From a bacterium (lineage in GTDB: Bacteria; Zhuqueibacterota; Zhuqueibacteria; Residuimicrobiales; Krinioviventaceae): 64,000 nt of DNA. The number at the start of each line of letters is the position of its first letter. The first letter of the stretch is position 1. The stretch lies in assembly GCA_963693055.1 (NCBI GenBank), contig OY843751.1, positions 4,352,001-4,416,000 on the forward strand, written 5' to 3'. This document shows, one piece after another, positions 1,576 through 30,935 of the stretch. The notes beneath the pieces were generated by a model. The model had not been told where the DNA came from and searched no databases. It saw nothing but the letters and a program-made list of their open reading frames with translations. Position numbers and translations under genes: made by a program.

Positions 1576-3129
1576 CTAATCATTTTTAAGAATAGTTGTT
1601 CCAAGAAATTGCTTATCATTTAAAATATCCTTTATTAACATAACAATACTTTCCAATGTATTATTATCTAAAGCAAGCCCACCTTTTAAACTATTATTTT
1701 CAGAAATCAATAAATATCCATTTCCAACTTTATCTTTACCAATATTATTTGGATTAGCAATCCAATAATTTGTATGTTTTAACAACTCTTTTAATAAATT
1801 ATCTTTTAATGTTACATATTTAATATTTTCGCCAATATTTTTTTTAGTCAATTTTCGCATCCGTTTTGCAAGTTCTAATAGCTTTTTATAATCATTTTCA
1901 TTATTTAAAAAAAACAAATAATGAGAATTTTTCGTAGAAATATTATAGAACATTGCATTAAAAAAATCTTGATCTTTATTTCTTAAAAAGTTAGGCAATA
2001 ATATCCAAAATTCTTTCAATTCTGGAAATGTACGTTCCCACTTCGCAATTTCAGACATAGGTGTAATTTTTAAAATATTTTGTGTTTTAATATATTTCAA
2101 AATACTTTCATAATTTATATTAGTTTTGCCAAGCTGTTTAGCTGTAGTAATAATTAACTGAGCTTTTATTTGATTTTTATAAAATTCATGCAAATTATCA
2201 AATTTGTTTTCAGACAATTCATAATCAGAAATATTTTTCAAAAACTTTTCCACGTTCTTATTTTTTGTACTAAAAAAATCTGGTGAAATATTTAAACAAA
2301 GCTGCAAATAATCAGCTAACAACAATGATTCATCAGGATTTTCCTTTTTACCTATCACAACATTTTCATCAACTTCTAAATTTAAATCTGTATGAATTAT
2401 TGTAAATCGCTGACTTTCATTTTGAAGTCCAATTTTTTCGATAATTGAGTTTTTCAAATTAAACTCTTGATCATCTAGCAACTCTGGCAATCTAGTTAAA
2501 ACTGGAATTATGTCAATTGGTTTTGTTTCATCAGGTTTAGAAACATTTCTAATACAATTAACTATTATTTTTGTTCCGTCAATATTTTCAGTATTATTCA
2601 TAAATAATACTACAACTTTATCTGCTAGTAATGAAGTCGCTACACCACCAATTTCAGTAATACCGGTCCTTGAATCGATTAATAAAATATCAGGATGATA
2701 TTTTTTTTCAATCATTCCTTTTAAATTTAAGAAAAAAGAAATTCCTTCTAAATCATGGTTATGATAAAATTTTTTATGCCAATCTAATTTAGATAATTTT
2801 TGCAAATAATCACTTTCTAAAGGATTTCCTGCAGGTAATAAATGAATTGAGCCACATTTTGATGTATTTTTATTTATTTCAATCACATAACGATTCAAAG
2901 CATTATCAACACTTTTATATTTAAACCAATAATAAATAAAATCAATTAACCCTTTTTTCATTTCTTCTTTATTTGTTAAAGCAAACTTGTAATGCTGACC
3001 AGGTGCTTCTAAATCTAAGTCTAAAACAAAAACATTTAAACCTATCATGGAATAAAAATTTGCCACATTCGCAACTGCTAAGGATCTTCCAACCCCACCT
3101 TTATATGAATAAAATGTTACTGTTTCCAT
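1576..3129 (-). CDS. ParA/MinD-like ATPase, KGGVGR variant, with an uncharacterised C-terminal domain
   Basis: TFYSYKGGVGRS deviant Walker A, DLDLEAPG, LIDSRTG; the ~230-aa C-terminal part is not recognised. Confidence 0.85.
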   Translation of the reverse strand: METVTFYSYKGGVGRSLAVANVANFYSMIGLNVFVLDLDLEAPGQHYKFALTNKEEMKKGLIDFIYYWFKYKSVDNALNRYVIEINKNTSKCGSIHLLPAGNPLESDYLQKLSKLDWHKKFYHNHDLEGISFFLNLKGMIEKKYHPDILLIDSRTGITEIGGVATSLLADKVVVLFMNNTENIDGTKIIVNCIRNVSKPDETKPIDIIPVLTRLPELLDDQEFNLKNSIIEKIGLQNESQRFTIIHTDLNLEVDENVVIGKKENPDESLLLADYLQLCLNISPDFFSTKNKNVEKFLKNISDYELSENKFDNLHEFYKNQIKAQLIITTAKQLGKTNINYESILKYIKTQNILKITPMSEIAKWERTFPELKEFWILLPNFLRNKDQDFFNAMFYNISTKNSHYLFFLNNENDYKKLLELAKRMRKLTKKNIGENIKYVTLKDNLLKELLKHTNYWIANPNNIGKDKVGNGYLLISENNSLKGGLALDNNTLESIVMLIKDILNDKQFLGTTILKND

Positions 3130-3141
3130 ATTTTCCTCTAT

Positions 3142-3615
3142 TTAATCTATTTTTTCACAAAAAAAACTTTTATTCCAATTTGATTTCATATAAAAATTTA
3201 AAGTTTTTTCATCAACAAATTGAAAAATATTCTCTTCATCTTGAAAAGAATCATTGTCTATACGTTTTTCCAAATTAAATGGCAAAAATTTGATTTTATT
3301 CATCTTAATAAACTCAATAAATTTTTTACTTGTACTATCTAAAAAAATAAACTTTGTTGAAATATCTGAATTAAAATCTTCAATCGATTTTTTAGTATTG
3401 AAGTGATAAAGTCTTCCTTCAAAATGAAGTAAAATTGTTCTCCATTTTTGAAAAAGAGTATACACACATTTATAATCAGAAATATCATGTGTTTTCATCA
3501 TAAAATCTTGTAGTTCATTTAGGTATTTAATAATACTTTCGGCTGGTAAATTATCCGTTTCAAAAAGAGAGTTTTCTAATATTTCGTCCTGCAACTTGAA
3601 TTCATCGATTTTCAT
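3142..3615 (-). CDS. hypothetical protein, possibly related to the ATPase C-terminal domain
   Basis: 157-aa ORF overlapping the upstream gene by 4 nt (ATGA) and ending 12 nt before the ATPase. Confidence 0.7.
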   Translation of the reverse strand: MKIDEFKLQDEILENSLFETDNLPAESIIKYLNELQDFMMKTHDISDYKCVYTLFQKWRTILLHFEGRLYHFNTKKSIEDFNSDISTKFIFLDSTSKKFIEFIKMNKIKFLPFNLEKRIDNDSFQDEENIFQFVDEKTLNFYMKSNWNKSFFCEKID

Positions 3616-4223
3616 AAAACTCTTTCTATACTATTCTTTAGTTCAGTATGCAAGTAATCCAAAATGGGTGCTGTATTAATAATTGATTTATCAGCAGCAT
3701 TTAAGATTGTTTTAATTTTGGTTTCAATAATTGCTACATATGGAGTAAATGTTTTTCCATAATTCTGATTATTATCCATTTGCACTATTTTTTTAAAAAC
3801 TTTTTTTAACTCATTCAATTCATTATACATTTCATTATAAAACAAATCAATTTTCTCTAAATTTTCTCTAATTGCATATGTGAAATATTGGACTTTACTT
3901 TCTTCAAAAACAATTTGAATCTTGTTTGGATTACATTCTTTTATAAAACTGTTATAATAATCCAACAATCTTTCCACTTTTTTATGTTTAATCGTAATAT
4001 CCGTAATATCAAGAATACTATTAACAATTTCTTCAATATTAATTTTCGAAAAATCTTCACAACCATTATGTATTGTTTTAGCATCTTTTAACATTTGATA
4101 CACAATATCAATTTTTAATAATTGACCATTCATCTGTATTAGGACATCTTCATGTTTTGAATCTTTGTTGAAGCTTTGATACACACTCATCGCACTTAAA
4201 ATAACCGATACAAGTTCTAACAT
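3612..4223 (-). CDS. hypothetical alpha-helical protein with a hydrophobic N-terminus
   Basis: 203-aa ORF with GGAGG RBS before the ATG; first gene of the AT-rich operon. Confidence 0.75.
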   Translation of the reverse strand: MLELVSVILSAMSVYQSFNKDSKHEDVLIQMNGQLLKIDIVYQMLKDAKTIHNGCEDFSKINIEEIVNSILDITDITIKHKKVERLLDYYNSFIKECNPNKIQIVFEESKVQYFTYAIRENLEKIDLFYNEMYNELNELKKVFKKIVQMDNNQNYGKTFTPYVAIIETKIKTILNAADKSIINTAPILDYLHTELKNSIERVL

Positions 4224-17115: not shown

Positions 17116-18051
17116 TTATTTTTCATTAGCCCTGGGATGGGCCTGCTTATAGATACGTTTCAAATGTTCGGCTGAAACATGTGTGTAAATCTCTGTAGTC
17201 CCTAAATTTGCATGGCCCAACAATTCTTTAACAGACATTAAATCTGCTCCTGAATCTAACAAGTGGGTTGCAAATGTATGCCGCAATGAATGCGGATGCG
17301 CTTTTTCTGTATCTGCTACTTTTTTAATATAATTTTGAACAATTGTTGCGACTTGCTGTCTGGTAAATGGCTCCTTTTCCTCTTTAACAAATAAATAGCG
17401 GTTATATTCCGGCTTTACAGACGCTTGCACTTCAATTTGCTGTAAATACCGGCGTATATCCTCAATTACTATACCGGGCAGGGGTAAAACTCTTTTTTTA
17501 TTACCTTTACCTAATACGGTGAGTGTGCCGTTATTCAAGTTCACATCACTTGTTTTGATATTGATCAACTCACTTACGCGGATGCCTGTAGCATAAAACA
17601 ACTCTAGTATCAAATAATCCCGCAATCCCTCAAAAGTTTCAACATCCGGTAAACTCAACAATGCCTTTATTTCCGATTTTGTCATAAATGATGGCAGCTT
17701 TTTATCCAGCTTGGGAGAAGCAATGTTAGCAACAGGATTTGCCTCAAGCACTCCCTTTCTAACCAAATACCGGGAAAACATCCGTAACGCGGAAAGTTTT
17801 CTGCTGGTACTACGTGCCGTATATTTTTCTTTCAATAATTCAGACAAAAAACCCCGTACCACAGACTTGGTCAAGTGATCTGTTGCAAAAAGTTCGTCCG
17901 TTTGATAACGCTTCTTTAAAAAACTGACATAATGATTCAAATCACGTCTATATGCTGCAATTGTATTTGCAGAACTGCGTCTTTCAACTTCAAGGTGTTG
18001 TAAAAATTGCGGGATCCAGTTTTCTAATTTTTCTTTTTCCATCGTCATCAC
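17116..18051 (-). CDS. xerC: tyrosine recombinase XerC
   Basis: S.NT..AY.RD, YATGIRVSEL, GKG.K.R, HPHSLRHTFATHLL, LLGH....TTEIYTH; follows topA. Confidence 0.9.
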   Translation of the reverse strand: MMTMEKEKLENWIPQFLQHLEVERRSSANTIAAYRRDLNHYVSFLKKRYQTDELFATDHLTKSVVRGFLSELLKEKYTARSTSRKLSALRMFSRYLVRKGVLEANPVANIASPKLDKKLPSFMTKSEIKALLSLPDVETFEGLRDYLILELFYATGIRVSELINIKTSDVNLNNGTLTVLGKGNKKRVLPLPGIVIEDIRRYLQQIEVQASVKPEYNRYLFVKEEKEPFTRQQVATIVQNYIKKVADTEKAHPHSLRHTFATHLLDSGADLMSVKELLGHANLGTTEIYTHVSAEHLKRIYKQAHPRANEK

Positions 18052-20231
18052 TTTTCGCTGATCACCGAAATAAACTGGTCATCGTATAGATGATTACATT
18101 TAGGGCATTGATAGCCTTTGTGGTCCTCTGTCAAATCGTGTTCGACAAGATACCGGTTGCCGCAATTACGGCACAACATATTTACCGGTTTTTTCCACGC
18201 GGCAAAAGAACAATCAGGATACCTGCTGCATCCGTAAAACAATCGTCCTTTTGATTGCCTTTCTACTACTTTGCCGTCACATCCGTCAACAGGGCAAGAG
18301 ATGTTGAGTGTGTAGGCTTTGGTAAAATCACATTTAGGATACCGGGTGCAAGCCAGAAACCTTCCATATTGTCCCTCTCTGACTGTTAGCGGTGCTCCAC
18401 AGATCTCACATATTTCTTTTTCTTCTTTATTATCAGCCTTATATATATAAACGCAGCTTGCAGGGTAATGTTCACAAATTATTTTATTATCGTCACCGTG
18501 TAGCAATTTGCCTCCGCACAACGGACAAGCACTTTTCCCATCTGCGCCAATTGTTACAGGGGCTTGAACAGAACCACCATGTTCAAAAAGTTTACTGTAA
18601 CTGTTTATAAACACCTCTATTGTTTGTTTACCAGACGCCACAGTTCGGATCGAATTATCCAGCTGCAAAACTATACCGGTATTGATATAGCCTGAATACT
18701 TTAATAACAAGGCATTTATGGCATAAAATCCCTTCGCTGAAGGATAAAGTCCGGATCTCTTTCGTTCAAGCATTTGAATTGCAAAAAGCATGCCCGAATG
18801 ATATAAATATTCATAAATAGAACCTGTCCCGGATGCCAGCCACAAGTGCAGCATTTCAGGCTCTGAATATCTATTTGATATTTCGGATTGATGGGTTTGA
18901 ATGTCAAAATCTACAACCTCAAGCTCCTTACCCGTGTTCCAGGTATCTGGTATTTTTACAACCTCACGAACATTAGATTTTTCAGGAAGAACCTGTCGAA
19001 AGCCCCGAAACAGGTCTGTTTCATACTCGTACTCGCAAATACAAGGGTCTTCTTTATCATCACTGACAGAGATTGTAGTAATCTCTGAAACGGATTTTGA
19101 CATTTGTGAAGCAATATAACGATGCCAAATCATAGAATAGATGTCATATTGCTGCTCGGTAAGGTGCTTTTTCAGTTTGCGTGGAGTCATCCGCAAATCA
19201 AGGGGACGTATAGCTTCCCCTTCCGGATGATGACGGTTTTGCTTATATGCGCTTTGCGGTAGGTAATCTGTTCCATAATTGTTATAAATATATTCCCGAA
19301 GCTCTGCAATACTTTCGGGCTTTACAAAATCGGAAACTGAAAGATAATACGTTATCAAGCTAATGGGCTCATCGCCCCCCATTCTCACACCTTTGTACAA
19401 TTTATCAAGAATCTTGACGCTATGGGCTACAGAGTGCTTGAAAAACTCCTGGGCATCTGCCAACAAGGTCTGCGTTGTATAGGGCTTTGGGGGTGGTGTT
19501 TGGTTTTGCCGGGTTTGAATATTTCGGATCTTAAACTCACCATTCTTGACTTGTGATACCATGGCTTTTGCAAGCTGTACATTTCGCACATCCTGCTCTT
19601 CTTTACCAATTTTAACAATCTGAAAATCTAGATTCTTTTTCCCTCTGACCTTGAAACGTACTGAAATTTGATAATGGCGGTGTACCTTTTCGCTTTCAAC
19701 CTCGGTCTCTTTTTCATATAAAAAGCGTAAAAGCAGGGCCTGCTTAATGTGGGTAAGCTCTTTTATCCCCTTAACGGCTTTTATTTTTAAAAACTCGTTG
19801 TGCAATAAACGGTTTGCCCAATAATCCGCGCATTCCGCATAAAACAAATCCGGAGTTACTGCTTTGATCTTTTTCAATTCATTGTTCAAAAACAGGGCCG
19901 TATTCTGATACATTTTGACTCTGACGATCTTTTTATAAGTACCGTCAAACAATAACGCAAGTAATCCCGCTAAAAAATCACTATCATTCCCAGGATCCAC
20001 AACCAGAACAATTGTATGAAAAGCTTGAGCAAAATCAAAAAGGGGGTTGAATATATCTAATGCCGATTCAAGCAACCGGACGGATGAATTCGAAAAATCA
20101 ACATTCTGTTGAATAAATTCATTACGATTTATTTTTTTCAAAAACTTGTAATCTTGAAAAACCGTAAATCCATTTATTGTCAACAGATCATAGCGATTTT
20201 TAGAATCAACTACAACAAGCGTTTTTTGCAT
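18048..20231 (-). CDS. degenerate DNA topoisomerase IA (TopA-like) with C-terminal zinc ribbons, probably catalytically impaired
   Basis: Collinear with TopA (PP.PYTT.TL, LY.G, LITY, EAIRP, IW.R..ASQM, GRFL.C.RYP.C) but most catalytic motifs are substituted. Confidence 0.85.
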   Translation of the reverse strand: MQKTLVVVDSKNRYDLLTINGFTVFQDYKFLKKINRNEFIQQNVDFSNSSVRLLESALDIFNPLFDFAQAFHTIVLVVDPGNDSDFLAGLLALLFDGTYKKIVRVKMYQNTALFLNNELKKIKAVTPDLFYAECADYWANRLLHNEFLKIKAVKGIKELTHIKQALLLRFLYEKETEVESEKVHRHYQISVRFKVRGKKNLDFQIVKIGKEEQDVRNVQLAKAMVSQVKNGEFKIRNIQTRQNQTPPPKPYTTQTLLADAQEFFKHSVAHSVKILDKLYKGVRMGGDEPISLITYYLSVSDFVKPESIAELREYIYNNYGTDYLPQSAYKQNRHHPEGEAIRPLDLRMTPRKLKKHLTEQQYDIYSMIWHRYIASQMSKSVSEITTISVSDDKEDPCICEYEYETDLFRGFRQVLPEKSNVREVVKIPDTWNTGKELEVVDFDIQTHQSEISNRYSEPEMLHLWLASGTGSIYEYLYHSGMLFAIQMLERKRSGLYPSAKGFYAINALLLKYSGYINTGIVLQLDNSIRTVASGKQTIEVFINSYSKLFEHGGSVQAPVTIGADGKSACPLCGGKLLHGDDNKIICEHYPASCVYIYKADNKEEKEICEICGAPLTVREGQYGRFLACTRYPKCDFTKAYTLNISCPVDGCDGKVVERQSKGRLFYGCSRYPDCSFAAWKKPVNMLCRNCGNRYLVEHDLTEDHKGYQCPKCNHLYDDQFISVISEK

Positions 20232-20271: not shown

Positions 20272-20739
20272 TCAGTGTGGCAGCATGTTGGAATTAAACT
20301 GGAAATAACCATCAGAAGCACTGTTTTCAAAATCCAATACTACCGCGGCAATTAAATCCTGCATTTCTTTAACATCAATACTTGCAAGTTGTAAACTTAC
20401 TGCGCGCTCTATGATCAGCTCCATCATATCGTCAGTAACCAGTTCCAGTTCACGTAATTGAAACAGGTACCCATACGCCTCGGGAGAGATTATCTCTTTT
20501 TCAATCTCATTCAACTCTCTCCAGATCGGCCGGGGAATATCCGAAGGATGCCCTTTTATGATCCGGTCTATACTTTCCCCATGGTTTAACAACCAGGACA
20601 TGGCCGTAGAGATTTCTTCATCACTAAAGCCCTGTTCCGATAATATATCTAAAATCAATTGTAAGTCTATTTCTCCAAAAGCGTTGTCACGAATCTCTTT
20701 CATCACAAAACTCAGGATATCCAAAAACCTTTTGTTCAT
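20272..20739 (-). CDS. smg: Smg/DUF494 family protein
   Basis: L..QGFS.EEI..A..WL, R.L...E, E.IIERA; upstream of topA as is usual. Confidence 0.85.
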   Translation of the reverse strand: MNKRFLDILSFVMKEIRDNAFGEIDLQLILDILSEQGFSDEEISTAMSWLLNHGESIDRIIKGHPSDIPRPIWRELNEIEKEIISPEAYGYLFQLRELELVTDDMMELIIERAVSLQLASIDVKEMQDLIAAVVLDFENSASDGYFQFNSNMLPH

Positions 20740-20910: not shown

Positions 20911-23900
20911 TTAATTGCCTTTGCCACAGCAATTTTTATATTTTTTTCCACTTCCACAGGGACAAGGCTCGTTTCTACCAACTTTATTGGTATTAATCAC
21001 CTGACGTTGCTTTCCTGCCGGACGTCCCGGTGTGGGCTGGGCCTGTGCTTTACCTTTTGGTGGAGCCATTACCTGTTTAAACAGTTCTACCTGAGAATGA
21101 GAAGTAGATACCTTTTGCGGTTCAGAACGTCTCATTTCCCGCTCTTCAAGCTCACCGCCAACATCCAGTACGCGGAAAAGAGTGCTTACAATATCTCTGT
21201 TTGTACTGTCAATCATTTTCACAAACATTTTATAAGCTTCACTCTTGTACTCGATCAATGGATCTTTTTGTCCGTAACCACGCAAACCAATACCTTCACG
21301 CAGCTCATCAACACCACTCAAATGCTGACGCCAGTTTTCATCGATTTTTTCAAGGATATAATACCGCTCGTATCTGGCTACCATAGATTCGCCAATCTCA
21401 TCCACACGGCGGCGGTAAATGCTTTGCGCCCAACTACTCAGCGTATTCATCACCGTATTGGGATCCATTGCCTCACCGCTTTCATCATGCAGGCGTGGTG
21501 ATTGTCTGAATACCAGACGGCATTCCGATTCCAAACGACGAATCTGGGTTGCATCAAGATCGTCATTATTACCCAGCACACCGCTAATCATTTGATAGAT
21601 TGTATCATCAATCATGGTTAATACAGAATCAAAAACAATATCTGTACTAAGCCGCTCCTGATGGTAACGCTCAACCCGGTCTGCATAGGTCTTGTAGAAA
21701 CTTAAACCCCATGCAACCAGTTCTTCACGATAAGAGTTTAATGCTTCACGCTCACGAGATGCCGGTAGAATCTTGTCCGGTTTACCCATAAACATATTCT
21801 GAAAACTTGATGCCAGCAATTGTTGTGTTGATTCGGCATCTTTATTTTCTTTGATTACATTTTCAAACCGTGCTATAATTGAAGATTCTATCAATTCTTC
21901 AATGGATGTATTGGCAAGCAACAATTGGTTATATACGGTAATATTTTCTCGCAAGTGTTCCAAATAGGTATTTCTTGCCCACCGCATTGTCTGGCTAACA
22001 AGGTCAGGCCAGTCTTTTAATGCCTCAGCAGGTTTAAATGCTTCTCCAAATACACTCTGCAAAAACTCTGCCTGTTTTTCTTCCAGTTCCAAAACATCAC
22101 GGCTATGATATGCCGATGCCTGTATAAAACTATGTTCAACCACTGCATTAATATATTGTACAGATGAAAAATAACCCAGAATTCGGTTCCGGTACAACAT
22201 TTCATCTTTACCAGCAATTGCCAGGCCGTCAAGCCATTCCTGAACTTTTTTTATAACTTTTTCACGTCGAATGGTGCGCATTTCATTTTCACCAATGGGA
22301 GGACGCTGCATAAATATCTTTTCCAGATCACTCAAAAAGTTTTCCGAATTCCAGGTTGCCGCTGGCGCGTCAATTGGTAAATGACGGTTAACCAAACCAT
22401 TTACATAAATTTCCAGAAAAGTGTTCAACGGAATGGTTTTAAAAAGAATACTATCTATTGCTTTTTGCCCGTTTTCTACCTGAGAATTATAAACAGATGC
22501 AGCCCATTCTTTTAACCTTGATTCAAAAACATCAGCAGTATCAATATTGCTATTCTCAAGCCAATCTGGTTTCTGCTCAAAAATACGCTCCATCTCATAA
22601 CCAATGCCCGAGATATTCCATTTTGAAATATCTCGGGTACCAGCGTTATGCAGTCTTATTTTCAACAATACCAGCTCATCTATAATATCTTGAATATTAC
22701 AATACCCGGTAATACGGTGACGCTCCTGCATTTGATAGAGGTGGCGCTGTTCTTTCAACTTTTCATCAACCCAGGTTCTCAAAGTCTCCCGAACACCACT
22801 AACATCCTGGCTTTCAAGTTCAGATTTGGTAAAATCAGGTTCTGCACCAAAATACCGTTTCAGATTTTCAAACAATTCATCCAGTTTCCAGGTTGAACGA
22901 TCATCTTCTTCATCAATAAAGCGTTTGATCTTGGCTTCTACAAAATCTTCCGGCTGTGCAAAACCCAGCAGGTTTTGTCGTCGTTTATATATAATCTTTC
23001 TTTGTTCATTCAATACGTCATCATAATCCAGCAAATGCTTACGAATTTCAAAGTTGCGTTCTTCAACTTTTTTCTGAGCGCGTTCAATGGATTTTGTGAT
23101 CATAGAGTGCTCAATGCGCTCTCCCTCATCCATACTGCCTAAACGACTCATAATATTTGTAATGCGGTCAGAACCAAACAGACGCATGAGATCATCTTCC
23201 AATGACAGATAAAAACGTGAAGAACCCGGATCTCCCTGACGTCCCGCACGACCACGTAACTGCCGGTCAATTCGGCGGGCTTCATGCTTTTCAGAACCAA
23301 TGATCTGTAAACCACCTTTTTCAATTACATCTCTGGTAAGCTTGATATCCGTACCACGACCCGCCATATTGGTCGCAATGGTTATGGATCCCGGTAGACC
23401 TGCTTTGGCAACAATTTCAGCTTCGTTTTTATGATATTTGGCATTCAATACCGTATGAAAGCGTCCCGATTCCAGCTCTTTGGTAACATCACCCTTTTTC
23501 AGCCAGTTGGCAACAGGAATACCGCGCTGGGTAAACAAATTACTCAGATGCTGAGAAACATCAACGGAAACCGTACCAATCAGAACCGGTAGTCCTTTTT
23601 CATGATACTCTATGGTATCTTTAATGATTGCATCATACTTTTCAGCCTTTGTTCGATAGATCACATCATTCATATCATCACGAATAACCGGCCTATTGGT
23701 TGGCGCAACAATAACATCCAGGTTGTAGGTACTGTAAAATTCCTGCGCTTCTGTTTCGGCAGTACCAGTCATACCTGCCAGTTTATTATATAATCTAAAG
23801 AAATTCTGCAATGTAATGGTAGCCAGTGTCTGGCTTTCTGCCTGCACTTCTACACCTTCTTTAGCTTCCAACGCTTCATGCAAACCGTCACTAAAACGGC

Positions 23901-26900
23901 GTCCCGGCATTAAACGACCGGTAAACTGATCAACAATCATAACCGCTTTATTACCACGTTTTGCACCGGTACGTCTTAATTCATTGTCTTCCACTGCCTT
24001 GACCACATACTCGACATCATTATGATACAATGTATATGCCCGCAGCAACTGGGATATATTTTGCACGCGTTCTTCCACGTGGTTATAATCCTGCCAGATC
24101 TTGTCTCGCTGTTGTTCCAGCATTACCCGTGGACGACGTTCAAAATGGATACGGAACCAGTGTTCAATCTCTTCATTACGCATTACAAAATTCGGCATAT
24201 GTGCGTTAGACAGCAATTCAGTCATCTCGCGATCATCCAAAACAATATGACGTGAACGTAAATGCGTTTTTTCTTTTGGAAGCAAGCCTTGCAGCTCTGC
24301 CCGACTGCCGGCTTTTTTGGTACTTAGCTGCATAATCTCATCACGAAAACTCTGATACTCGTCCCGGTAATTGAAATAAGGTAATCCGCCAATCAACAAA
24401 GTACGGGCAGCTTTTTCAATGCCTTTGGGTATTTTATTTTCATCCAAAACAAACAATGCATCAACATCCACATTCGGATCGCTTGCAGCTTCTTTTAATT
24501 TATCTACAACCTGACTGCGCTCAAAAAACAGACCCTGCAAATTCTTGCGGCCGTTTTCAGTCAATCCTGTAATATTGACAGTCTTAAAAACGGGGTCCTC
24601 CGGATGCAAGGTACCACTAAACTGGAAATACCTGCGAAGCCAGCGCTGGCGCTCTGTAAGGGTTTGATCAGTATCTGCCAGGTTTGTAAAAATCATCTGT
24701 ATCGTTTCATTGAGGCGCTCAACCTCTTCAAACCGACGTGAAGCACTGATAATCTCTGCAGGCAAGTTGAATTTATCCTGCAGATGTGCATCCAGCTTTA
24801 GCTTGTTAGACAGTTCATTTTTACCGGTATCACGGCTCCAGGATTTAATTTCTTTATCTACATCGGCAAAATTCGCGCCCATCAAGCGTTCCAATTCAGC
24901 GTCTGCCAATCCGGCCACATGTCCATTCGCTTCAGTTTTAAAAATAGCCTCGGGCTTGTCTTTATAATCACCCAGATGTTTTTCAAAGTGACGTATTACG
25001 GTTTTACTTTCACTACTGAAATTTGAAAGGCATTCAACACCCAGGGAGGTTATATCAAACCTGCCGGTTTCCATAACATAAAAATCATTATTTTTAGGAT
25101 CTTCAAGGGTTTGAATATGTTCATAAAGTGCTGTTACATCTCTATCCATATCTTCTACAGCAAGAACATGAGCAGAATAATCATAATCTGCCTGGTTCAA
25201 AGTATCATCCAACTGCTTTTGGATCTGCTGGTCACGTTCTTCAACCAGGGTTCTGTCAGGCAGTACATACAGATCAGGATTACCACCAAGCAGAGCAATA
25301 CGGCCTTTTTCAGTAATTTGATTTAAAACAGCGCCATTGTCTTTTAACTCGAAATATTCCTGCTTGATATTTTCAATAGAGGTTAAATCTTGCGTTGAGG
25401 CAGGATTAAGAAGCGCAATCAATCCATTAACAGTAGGCAGCAGCATAGGATCGCCAGATTTTTGCATAGCCAATACCGCCAGTTTACCTTCTTGGGTCAA
25501 ACCGGTAATTGCGCCAAACTGTTTTTCAGTTTCAAAAAAGACGTCGGTTAATTCTCTTCTTCTGTCAACAAGCGGACGCTTCATAACCGGTTCAGCATCT
25601 ACGTCTGCTTCTTCTCGCACCATATCTAAAAGCTTTACAAAAGCATCTACAATAGCTTCATCATATTTACCGTTTGCATTGGATTTCAGAAAATCAATTC
25701 CCGTAGATGACATGCTGTTTACAGCCCTGTCCATCTTTTTGGTCATACCATAAAACTGCCGCCATACAGAGGCCTTGTCACCTTTATTATTTTGCAAACG
25801 AGTATTAATTTCTTCAGGTAAATTATTCAATTGAAGAGAAAGCTGCTCAATGGGTTCAAATTCAGACTCGGTAACCCCGGATTGTATACCAATAAGCGCG
25901 GCTTTACCCGCAAGAGTCAATCCGTTACAGGTACCGGTAATGGAATCATGTGTAAAATAGATGGAACGGTTCTTTTGCTCGCTGATTTTCTCAAGCGTTG
26001 CGCTCAATACATCCAGTTTTTGAATTTTATGAACAATATCCTGGTCGCGGCCGCCCGAGAGGAAAATACGTCCCTTTTCGGTAATATCTATAACATGGCT
26101 CTTTTCATCAATGGTGAAATACAAATCCGCATCAACTTCACCCATTTGCTTGTTTACTTCATATTGGCCCTGAATTCGTTCAATCAATTTCTTGACCCAA
26201 AATTCCGAAGTCAGCAGTTCCAACAGTTCTTTGTTTTTAGGATCTCCACGATGGACCTGAAGAATTTTGATTCCTGCTTGTTCTTCATCGTTCTCGAGCA
26301 ACTCTTTGCCTTCACGCAACAGTTGTTGCACCAGCTCGTTCTGTCGTTTAGCCAGGTTCTCTACAGTGGGTTTTAATTCTTTATAAATATTCTTGGGTGC
26401 TCCAACAGCTCCCGATATAATCAATGGTGTTCTGGCTTCATCAATCAAAACACTGTCCACTTCATCTACAATTGCGTAATGTAAGGGTCGCTGCACAACA
26501 GACCAAACATCCTGAGACATATTATCACGCAAATAATCAAATCCAAATTCGTTATTGGTACCATACGTAATATCCGCATGATAAGCCGCGCGGCGTTCTT
26601 CTGGAGATTGATCTCCAAAAATTGCAGCTACCGTTAATCCCAAAAACTTGTAAATTTCGCCCATCCATTCACAGTCACGTTGGGCCAGATAATCATTAAC
26701 AGTGATAAGATGCACACCCTTGCCTTCTAACGCATTCAGATACAAAGGCATAGAGGCTACAAGGGTTTTACCTTCACCTGTTGCCATTTCAGCAATTTTC
26801 CCATCATGCAGTATCATACCACCCAATATCTGCACATCATAAGGAATCATGTCCCATTCTATTTCCTGCCCGCGAACCATCCATTTTTTACCGCGCAACC

Positions 26901-27141
26901 GTCTACAGGTATCTTTAACAACGGCAAAAGCTTCGGGTAAAATATCATCAAGGGTTTCCCCCATACGTAATCTATATTTAAACTCGTTGGTTTTCGCTTT
27001 TAATTCATCATCAGATAGATGCTCATATTCTTTTGCATAGTCATTCACCGTAGCAACTAATGGCTCTAACCGTTTAACTTCACGTTCGGTGCTTGTGCCT
27101 CCCATAACTTTGGAAAGCATTTTTTCAATAGACTTTAACAT
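20911..27141 (-). CDS. secA: preprotein translocase ATPase SecA, greatly enlarged (2076 aa) by repeated PPXD and HWD modules
   Basis: [64 protein letters not shown]-terminal [13 protein letters not shown]. Confidence 0.97.
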
Positions 27142-27308
27142 TTACAAAATCCTCGTTTATCAAATCTATAAATAATTATACCGGCAATACTTATATGTAT
27201 ACAAACAACACAAGTTTCAAATTTAATGGATTTTAGGCTAAAAATCCAGCAAATTAATTACGCCGGTATTATTTAAATTGGCTGTTATCAAATTAGAGCA
27301 TGGTGGGG

Positions 27309-27815
27309 TTAAGCGGGTAAATCCTGTTTGTCCAGGCATCCTCTACCGGTTTTTTGAATTTTATTGTTCTTTTTCAAACTTTCATAAACAGCATCCAAAA
27401 TCCCGTTAATAAAACCACCGCTCTTGTCCGTACTATACAACTTGGACAGTTCAATCGCTTCATCAATGGAAACTTTGGGGGGGATATCATTAAAATTCAT
27501 AAACTCACAGATCGCAATACGCATAATAATGCGATCAATAATAGCAATACGCTCGAACTTCCAATTGGTAGAATGGTCTCTAATGTTTTGGTCCAAAACT
27601 TCCCTTTGATCAAAAGTTTGACGAATCAATTGTTTTGTAAACTGGGTAATTGTATTATCTACAACATCTTTGCCCAAAACCAGGGTCAAAACCTGTAAAA
27701 CAGAATTACCAGAGAGTTCCAGTGCATATAAACCCTGTAAAGCTGTCTCTCTGGCTTTTCTACGACTTGCGGGGGGTGAAATTAATTCAATTTCATCATT
27801 ATTTTCAATAAACAT
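27309..27815 (-). CDS. nusB: transcription antitermination factor NusB
   Basis: RRKARE.ALQ.LY, NW..ER...IDR, VSIDEAIEL.K, FINGILD; start uncertain. Confidence 0.95.
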   Translation of the reverse strand: MFIENNDEIELISPPASRRKARETALQGLYALELSGNSVLQVLTLVLGKDVVDNTITQFTKQLIRQTFDQREVLDQNIRDHSTNWKFERIAIIDRIIMRIAICEFMNFNDIPPKVSIDEAIELSKLYSTDKSGGFINGILDAVYESLKKNNKIQKTGRGCLDKQDLPA

Positions 27816-27832
27816 GGTATAAAAGAACACCT

Positions 27833-28762
27833 TTATAAAGTTATAAAATCATGCCAATTGTAAATATCATCACACTCGCCGTTGATATATTCAAAATAGC
27901 GTTTCTGTATCTTTTCAGTAATTTCTCCCCTGCTTCCACTGCCAACGGTAATTCTATCAACAGAACGGACCGGGGTAATTTCTGCGGCAGTACCGGAGAA
28001 GAATATTTCATCAGCAAGGTACAGCATTTCACGAGGTATTTTGGTTTCCACTACAGGAATATCCAATTCTTTTGCAATGGTAAATACACAATCGCGGGTA
28101 ATACCCAACAAAATGCTAGAGTGTATTGCCGGAGTATAAATCACGCCATCACGGATCACATAAACGTTTTCTCCGCTGCCCTCACTTACATAACCCTGAA
28201 CATCAAGCCCAATACCTTCAGAAAAACCGGCCTGGGTTGCTTCGGTTTTAATCAGTTGAGAGTTCATATAATTAGAACCAGCCTTGGCCATAGAAGGCAT
28301 TGTGTTGGGTGCCAGTCGGTTCCAGCTCGAAACAGCAACATCCACACCATTAACAATAGCGTCTTCTCCCAGATAACGTCCCCAATTCAGGCCGCCTATT
28401 ATCACTTCTACCGGGCACTTGGAAGCATCCACACCCAGACTGTGATATCCACGGTAAACAAGCGGACGTACATAAGCAGATTCAAATTTATTTACTTTGA
28501 TAGTTTCTTTACATGCCTCTACAATTTCTTCTTGTGAAAAGGGAATAGGCATACGATATATTTTTGCAGAATCAAACAATCGTCTGATATGTTCTTTTAA
28601 TCTAAAAATACTGGGACCGTTTGGTGTCTTGTAACAACGCATGCCTTCAAAAACACTGGTTCCATAATGCAGAACATGAGACATAACATGGACATTTGCA
28701 TCTTTCCACGCAACAAACTCACCATTCATCCATATTTTGCCCTGTTCATCTCTGGGATCCAT
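27833..28762 (-). CDS. ilvE: branched-chain amino acid aminotransferase
   Basis: HVLHYGTSVFEG.R, AKAGSNY, EGSGEN, LGITR, GTAAE. Confidence 0.96.
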   Translation of the reverse strand: MDPRDEQGKIWMNGEFVAWKDANVHVMSHVLHYGTSVFEGMRCYKTPNGPSIFRLKEHIRRLFDSAKIYRMPIPFSQEEIVEACKETIKVNKFESAYVRPLVYRGYHSLGVDASKCPVEVIIGGLNWGRYLGEDAIVNGVDVAVSSWNRLAPNTMPSMAKAGSNYMNSQLIKTEATQAGFSEGIGLDVQGYVSEGSGENVYVIRDGVIYTPAIHSSILLGITRDCVFTIAKELDIPVVETKIPREMLYLADEIFFSGTAAEITPVRSVDRITVGSGSRGEITEKIQKRYFEYINGECDDIYNWHDFITL

Positions 28763-30527: not shown

Positions 30528-30884
30528 TACAAAGCAGGTCATAAGCCGAATTCTGTTATCCGCAAATGCGGATCGATGATCATTTATCTGGGATGGCGAT
30601 TGCCCGCCACCTCAAGCGACCTACCCGAGAGTCAAACGAGACGGGCCGCCTCTTCTCTCCTATTTGGTCTTGCTCCGAATGGGGTTTACCCTGCCCCCGA
30701 TGTCACCAACGGGGCGGTGAGCTCTTACCTCGCCATTTCACCTTTGCCCCAAAGGGCTGTATATTTTCTGTGGCACTTTCCCTGCTTCACAACAGGTCCG
30801 CGTTACGGACCATTCTGCCCTGTGGAGTTCGGACTTTCCTCATCCCGCAAAATTGCGGAACGCGATCACCTGCCCTGCTTTGTA
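30528..30884 (-). ncRNA. rnpB: RNase P RNA (type A)
   Basis: Minus strand reads GAGGAAAGUCCGAACUCC ... AGUGCCACAGAAA ... GAGCAAGACCAAAUAGG ... ACAGAAUUCGGCUUAU; P1 ends tacaaagcagg and cctgctttgta pair. Confidence 0.97.
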
Positions 30885-30935
30885 TATTAAAATAACAAAT
30901 TACACCAATTTTCAAAGCATATAATTAGCTATTTT

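Follow-up and report, generated by a model that had tools for sequence, protein, structure and literature searches.

A housekeeping SecA of about twice normal size, with copied wing and PPXD modules, in an order of the candidate division KSB1

The housekeeping SecA of a whole KSB1 order, encoded at the ancestral secA locus, is about twice the size of a normal SecA as a result of the copying of two modules: the wing, present as six units, and a second module in the PPXD, present about nine times. In the 64,000-nt stretch of DNA analyzed here (the window), secA occupies positions 20911-27141 (minus strand) and encodes a product of 2,076 aa. It is the only SecA gene detected by genome search in a 6.5-Mb, single-contig, 100%-complete genome. 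The product scores 909 bits against the NCBIfam secA model TIGR00963 (cut-off 800) and 973 bits against PRK12904 (cut-off 814), and Pfam recognizes SecA_DEAD, SecA_PP_bind, P-loop_SecA, SecA_SW (as two stretches) and SEC-C, with the zinc-binding motif of the latter (PF02810) at 20920-20976 (-). Walker A, Walker B (DEVD), motifs V and VI and the two-helix finger are kept in all 30 giants compared, motif III and the ZnBD in 29 of the 30, and the less strict gate and PPXD loop motifs in 21 and 22, respectively. An accessory SecA2 identity was rejected, as the gene is the sole copy, the ZnBD is present and the NCBIfam SecA2 models all fall under their cut-offs.

The giant has the domain order of canonical SecA (E. 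coli 2fsf/2vda, B. subtilis 3jv2/1m6n, T. maritima 3din; TIGR00963), namely NBD1-PPXD-NBD2-HSD-HWD-two-helix finger-ZnBD, with common motor motifs and scaffold geometry. Canonical SecA, however, has one wing, and its PPXD measures 95-119 aa from landmark to landmark (in the 68 measurable of 78 background SecAs), whereas the giant has six wings and a PPXD span of 817-855 aa (27 of 30 measurable). The SecAs of the sister KSB1/Zhuqueibacterota orders (1,023-1,135 aa; FCB type, PRK12901-like) are positional orthologues of the giant and share its FCB-type helical PPXD additions. Their PPXD spans 199-203 aa, and their wing, from landmark to landmark, 126-129 aa in 20 of 20 sequences, compared with 560-567 aa in 28 of 30 giants (two were not measurable). 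The giant lacks, near its N-terminus (around aa 60), a helical insert that the sister proteins carry in NBD1, and has two short conserved insertions, in the PPXD hairpin loop (around aa 1047-1065) and in NBD2 (around aa 1212-1232).

The wing array sits between the long helix of the helical scaffold domain (22966-23109 (-), aa 1345-1392, placed by the predicted model and structural superposition) and the two-helix finger with the scaffold end (21157-21381 (-), aa 1921-1995). The wing span is 439 residues longer than in the sister proteins, corresponding to five additional units of about 88 aa. An initial annotation made from the DNA sequence had reported six tandem wing repeats of about 89 aa, and every motif it quoted lies within the secA reading frame. 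Within the product, the motifs of the six units begin at aa 1416, 1506, 1595, 1684, 1772 and 1863 (window 22896, 22626, 22359, 22092, 21828 and 21555), and their spacings of 270, 267, 267, 264 and 273 nt (88-91 aa) bear out the periodicity of about 265-270 nt given there. The motif had been described as W-led, which is true of U1-U3; the leading W is missing from U4-U6. Trp-helix motifs occur at all six claimed places, and in five units the later Trp shows conservation of 90% or more, U4 being the exception to the conservation claimed for it. Motifs of the R-x-R-(I/L)-x-G-(Y/F) type, of which three had been noted, were found at aa 1387, 1474 and 1651. Since five units keep the third-helix Trp and none of the six sister sequences shown in the alignment has it, the sequences suggest that all wing copies descend from one derived unit.

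Are all six units indeed copies of the wing? Divergence has put the copies beyond the reach of BLAST, Pfam and DNA repeat searches: self-comparison had been expected to reveal them, but a self-BLASTP contains no internal repeat; SecA_SW, predicted to give multiple partial hits, does match more than one stretch, but two and not six; and a DNA repeat search leaves only short matches of 14-26 nt between copies. Profiles were therefore used, built from 40 giant sequences (16 of 56 were lost to the landmark regular expression) with unit boundaries taken from the predicted model. An earlier hhalign round set 30 giant SecAs against 20 normal SecAs of the sister orders, and there U1, U2, U3 and U6 aligned to the single sister wing at 94-96%. 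Controls reached at most 51.5% among 49 reversed profiles for the 40-giant set and at most 27% among 140 controls for the 30-giant set; the periodicity thus exceeds chance.

Against the single wing of the 20 sister SecAs, hhalign gives 96.4% for U1 (22720-22965, aa 1393-1474), 93.8% for U2 (22453-22719, aa 1475-1563), 93.6% for U3 (22192-22452, aa 1564-1650) and 94.9%, over 88 columns, for U6 (21382-21657, aa 1829-1920), all on the minus strand. U6 is the most conserved unit, with 33 residues at least 90% conserved compared with 24 in U2. In a leave-one-unit-out HMM the medians of these four units rank above all 20,913 null segments. Between units of the 40 giants, the values are 95.6% for U1-U2, 96.2% for U1-U3, 93.5% for U2-U3 and 91.7% for U2-U6. 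The most diverged unit, U4 (21928-22191 (-), aa 1651-1738), reaches 4.8% against the sister wing and is missed by the leave-one-out HMM, its median being attained by 1,536 of the 20,913 null segments; its assignment comes instead from a 96.6% pairing with U2 and from the predicted model, in which the helix pattern matches. U5 (21658-21927 (-), aa 1739-1828) is marginal by sequence: it aligns in register at 73% to U3 and 58% to U2, reaches 1.9% against the sister wing, and its leave-one-out median is equaled by 83 of the 20,913 null segments (top 0.4%), while its helix pattern matches that of the other units. The unit profile also matches the T. thermophilus wing in 2ipc (E 3.7e-10). The proposed identity of the units as diverged wing copies is thus established by sequence for four of the six; U4 is linked to them indirectly, through U2, and U5 is a probable copy.

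Predicted structure points the same way. An AlphaFold2 model of aa 1345-1995 (pLDDT 89, pTM 0.82) repeats a predicted helix-helix-helix pattern six times at high pLDDT, which suggests that the wing copies form an ordered array. A VIA superposition on B. subtilis SecA (3jv2) of the modeled scaffold and two-helix finger, together with residues amounting to one wing, gives Z 19.4 and an rmsd of 2.1 Å over 177 residues, so that the modeled helical scaffold with its two-helix finger keeps canonical geometry; a Foldseek search with the whole wing model returned SecA matches only. The aromatic and aliphatic content of the arms does not exceed that of a normal wing, and all six units are net acidic, at -2.6 to -10.8 per 100 aa. 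This charge bears on the idea that the array extends the contact of SecA with the membrane surface, anchoring it or pre-positioning it at SecYEG. A single HWD does touch nanodisc lipid in a SecA-SecY structure (PMC6599042), but acidic units would be unfavorable for anionic lipid and the PPXD expansion would be left unexplained, and we regard this explanation as improbable.

The second expansion, overlooked in the initial annotation, is larger than the first. Some 655 aa are inserted in the PPXD (24097-26061 (-), aa 361-1015); they hold modules P2-P9 of a helix/β-hairpin/helix unit, assigned from the predicted model with partial sequence support, and follow the native hairpin-helix module, P1 (26053-26148 (-)). 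The model of the PPXD region (pLDDT 77, pTM 0.54) contains nine such elements, of which the first is the native one. Leave-one-out profiles support P1, P3, P4 and P5; P2 is marginal, and P6-P9, not significant in this comparison, were assigned from the model and from pairwise matches of 51-93%, where controls reach up to 72%. P5 runs on into the sequence that follows the native module in sister SecAs (95%), which indicates that four of the copies arose in place, the other four lying further along. Foldseek with the whole PPXD-region model returned nothing at E 0.001 or better, the best match of a wide VIA search (Z 6.7) lies outside the insert, and the ESM Atlas holds no usable match for either the PPXD or the wing insert. 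Predicting U2-U5 and the PPXD insert as a complex yielded a score of 0.00, which gives no verdict either way. As a separate lead, the three best structural matches to the FCB-type helical addition with which the PPXD opens (aa 260-324, window ~26170-26364), an addition that sister SecAs share, are all to the presequence receptor Tom20 (Z 6.7, rmsd 3.0 Å, 63 aligned residues), values below significance for helical bundles.

The giant architecture is a clean marker for one order. Of the order's 41 genomes, 40 carry it: 34 as an open frame of 2,060-2,166 aa, five in pieces at contig ends and one with a frame change; in the remaining genome (78% complete) only a short paralogue was seen. None of the 95 SecA_SW-bearing genomes from other orders of the phylum (97 surveyed, two having no match) encodes a giant, and each has one uninterrupted SecA_SW match. 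One close homologue and many related loci are labeled candidate division KSB1, others “uncultured Cytophagia” or “bacterium.” The locus order nusB-secA-smg-topA-xerC is common to giants and sister orders: nusB (27309-27830 (-)) marks the ancestral secA locus upstream and the DUF494 (smg-like) gene (20272-20739 (-)) marks synteny downstream, and among sister loci nusB is present in 20 of 20, topA in 19 of 20 and xerC in 18 of 20. In a first, quick tree and in a tree of core columns, the giants form one clade (SH-aLRT 100) on a long stem, within a group that includes the sister SecAs (SH-aLRT 99 for the core). The core stem branch measures 1.07 changes per column in one tree and 0.29 on trimmed columns.

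The expansion had been called old and no assembly artefact, and this has stood up: it extends over five families of the order, occurs on Logan contigs from two studies that are free of gaps within the gene, and is under purifying selection in each unit. Logan contigs reproduce the window without differences, and the contig of the second study, spanning 21305-27994, has 496 substitutions and zero gaps inside the gene. A search for RNA holders listed none. For the eight closest pairs, dN/dS is 0-0.50 in the wing units (U4 up to 0.50), 0.05-0.17 in the PPXD insert and 0-0.12 in the core; every wing unit and the PPXD insert are under purifying selection. That the giant is an error of assembly or annotation, or an accessory paralogue that does not function, could be argued from genome G010, where a frame change within the PPXD insert (L098:4828-4917) splits the gene. 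Other genes of that assembly are also in pieces, so the frame change is probably a sequencing error, and against the open frames in 34 genomes, the contig of the second study, the sole SecA and the selection throughout, this explanation has next to nothing to recommend it. Shorter SecA-like genes in G004, G010, G013 and G016 (792-924 aa) were considered as reduced giants and rejected, since they fall outside the giant clade. Those of L095, L096 and L097 (in G013, G010 and G016) encode divergent paralogues of 792-818 aa that have a hydrophobic C-terminus and no zinc-binding tail and form a long-branch clade of their own. Separately, genomes G000 and G001, of two species, differ at only 1-7 positions per 200 nt over window ~22700-23700 (aa ~1140-1480), compared with 9-27 elsewhere in the gene, and their dS is 0.02-0.03 in the scaffold helix and U1 as against 0.14-0.55 elsewhere; the stretch is likely a recent recombination tract.

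Wing amplification is not confined to this order. A single-wing-unit profile searched against 1.84 billion representatives gave 178 matches. Among them, a clade of five proteins of 1,553-1,698 aa (P0186, P0187, P0191-P0193; one member labeled Deltaproteobacteria) has 8 or 10 detected units, separated by a clean two-unit indel; a fragment, P0130, has five; and P0108 (labeled Armatimonadota) and P0196, with a span of 410 aa, have two to three. An HMM built solely from normal KSB1 wings detected 22 domains in the deltaproteobacterial group, 4 in P0130 and 4 in the Armatimonadota group, and 0 in five shuffles of each. An AU test on 30 rows, P0130 not being in the trees, rejects a single origin of the KSB1, deltaproteobacterial and Armatimonadota groups (p = 0.0009). 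The wing was amplified independently in at least three lineages, and this recurrence suggests a repeatable benefit or a tolerance. Like the giant, these proteins carry tandem wing copies between scaffold helix and two-helix finger; they differ from it in a normal short PPXD where measurable (95-102 aa), in variable copy number and in their independent origin. P0051 (interferon repeats) and P0182 proved to be false positives, and P0071 looks like a duplicated fragment. A metagenome search for deltaproteobacterial multi-wing loci returned ordinary SecAs only, which served as a background set: 50 of its 80 loci had measurable wing spans, 47 of 122-149 aa, one of 75 aa and two of 231-232 aa. Relatives of the deltaproteobacterial clade (P0194, P0195, L108 and L125) have wing spans of 231-240 aa and probably represent a two-wing stage. 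No published description of multi-wing SecAs in other lineages was found.

Do such arrays need to do anything at all? It is possible, if rather doubtful, that they are tolerated expansions that later became entrenched, at two loop-out sites (the wing and the PPXD loop) where duplication is harmless, the copies being structurally interdependent and having no new job. The recurrence of wing amplification in unrelated SecAs with differing copy numbers, and the clean presence or absence of two units within the deltaproteobacterial clade (10 vs 8), are what this would produce; many SecA2 proteins, moreover, have a shortened wing (PMC7503281), selection on the units is weaker than on the core, and no change was found in any partner. 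Yet copy number and length are fixed over five families, carrying about 1,000 additional residues imposes a permanent cost, and near-invariant polar and charged runs in U2, U6 and P5 exceed what the fold should need.

We tentatively favor a different reading, in which the arms extend the groove between PPXD and wing into a larger preprotein-holding surface, or cradle, used before translocation through SecYEG. In SecA the signal-sequence site lies between PPXD and HWD (PMC5963308), the PPXD moves towards the HWD upon ATP binding (PMC6123708), and HWD residues have been implicated in target binding (PMC7503281). Both expanded domains flank that site, which makes an enlarged holding surface the best reading of the pair. 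Old in-frame tandem duplications would have taken the wing to six units and the PPXD hairpin-helix module to about nine. The HWD is inserted in the scaffold bundle (PMC7503281), so that copies could be added without disturbing the two-helix finger: the wing is predicted to loop out from the bundle, with extra copies stacking into one ordered helical arm and the geometry of scaffold and finger staying normal despite the arms. The motor cycle would be canonical, given the intact motor motifs and the ordinary SecY, SecD, SecF, trigger factor and SRP GTPases, and the arms would act as a built-in holdase or cargo cradle.

These partners were surveyed in available genomes. SecY is present at normal length in 43 of 43 genomes (SecYEG is taken as present on the strength of SecY), SecD, SecF and trigger factor have ordinary length in 51 of 51, and in the genome of the window the SRP GTPases, including Ffh, are present and of ordinary size. 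SecB was not found in this genome or in 46 genomes of the sister orders, and weak SecB-like matches occur in three of 15 genomes of the giant-bearing order. Compensation for a lost partner was considered and rejected: trigger factor, SecD, SecF and SecY are of normal length, leaving nothing obvious to be replaced, the SRP GTPases are present, and loss of SecB is not the trigger, because sister orders lacking detectable SecB manage with a normal SecA. The same genome has 36 open reading frames of at least 1,500 aa, many of which start, by eye, with signal-peptide-like sequences. Counted for the cradle are these large open reading frames, the failure to find SecB, the sole SecA at its ancestral locus with kept motor motifs, the ordered wing model and the purifying selection. 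Counted against it are the unexceptional hydrophobicity of the arms, the sister orders' normal SecA despite their likewise having no detectable SecB, the weak SecB-like matches within the order, the normal length of the partner proteins, the looser gate and PPXD loop motifs of the giants, and the convergence between lineages, which fits an insertion-tolerant site equally well.

Alternatively, the arms might be a docking platform for a lineage-specific partner, such as a chaperone, the ribosome or an envelope complex, or might fix a SecA dimer or oligomer through cross-contacts between PPXD and wing. Such a role would be in keeping with the patches of conserved polar and charged residues in U2, U5-U6 and P5, with the modeling of a PPXD/HWD cross-interaction as a SecA dimer interface (PMC7503281) and with the long core stem branch, which is expected if contacts have changed. 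The locus, however, is identical to that of sister orders and offers no candidate partner gene, and SecY, SecD, SecF, trigger factor and Ffh are of unremarkable size; we consider a platform unlikely. More broadly, and with less than even confidence, the wing may be pictured as a repeatedly amplified module that has become a helical repeat arm in at least three lineages, to which the KSB1 order has added a PPXD arm, making its own chaperone cradle or partner platform. If this is true, nature provides a deletion series for what the wing domain does.

A literature search, covering the main text of papers open without subscription, returned no description of a six-wing or expanded-PPXD SecA, and the main text of the Zhuqueibacterota paper (PMC11683472) does not mention SecA. 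The closest published precedent is the canonical SecA of Planctomycetes with a rearranged SecA_SW (Kamneva et al., 2015; PMC4452313), which, like the giant, is a lineage-wide change of the wing-scaffold region in a canonical SecA. As described, it is a “rearrangement” at the level of Pfam in another phylum, with no account of tandem wings or PPXD expansion. Giant Omnitrophota proteins carry SecA_DEAD domains (bioRxiv 10.1101/2023.11.21.568195) and are likewise very large proteins with SecA domains from uncultured bacteria; according to that account, however, they have no wing-scaffold domain, are accessory to a normal SecA and owe their size to foreign domains, whereas the giant SecA is a housekeeping protein grown from its own modules. 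Pfam presents multi-wing SecAs only as a split SecA_SW, and they are therefore easily overlooked. The essential SecA has been treated as structurally fixed; a housekeeping form that reaches about 2,070 aa, roughly 1,100 of them in repeats derived from the two mobile domains that surround the signal-sequence groove, shows how much enlargement the SecA-SecYEG geometry can accommodate. Natural wing copy numbers of 1, about 2, 3 or more, 5, 6, 8 and 10 provide a direct test of this poorly understood domain.

Other features of the window deserve mention. The topA gene two genes downstream of secA (18048-20231 (-)) no longer carries its catalytic motifs in the giant-SecA order: DxDREGE is kept in 0 of 19 loci of that order (L053-L081) compared with 18 of 18 sister loci (L033-L052). 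A second, intact TopA of about 870-900 aa is encoded elsewhere (G000:C1:4503291-4505933), with a match over the cut-off in 25 of 31 genomes of the order. The locus copy looks like a pseudo-topoisomerase, retained or slowly decaying after its replacement, and shares lineage and locus with the SecA expansion. In the intergenic region 30566-30895, the translated open reading frames resemble the shadow that RNase P RNA genes typically leave. Finally, window 2001-4000 has a G+C content of 25%, compared with about 40% elsewhere.
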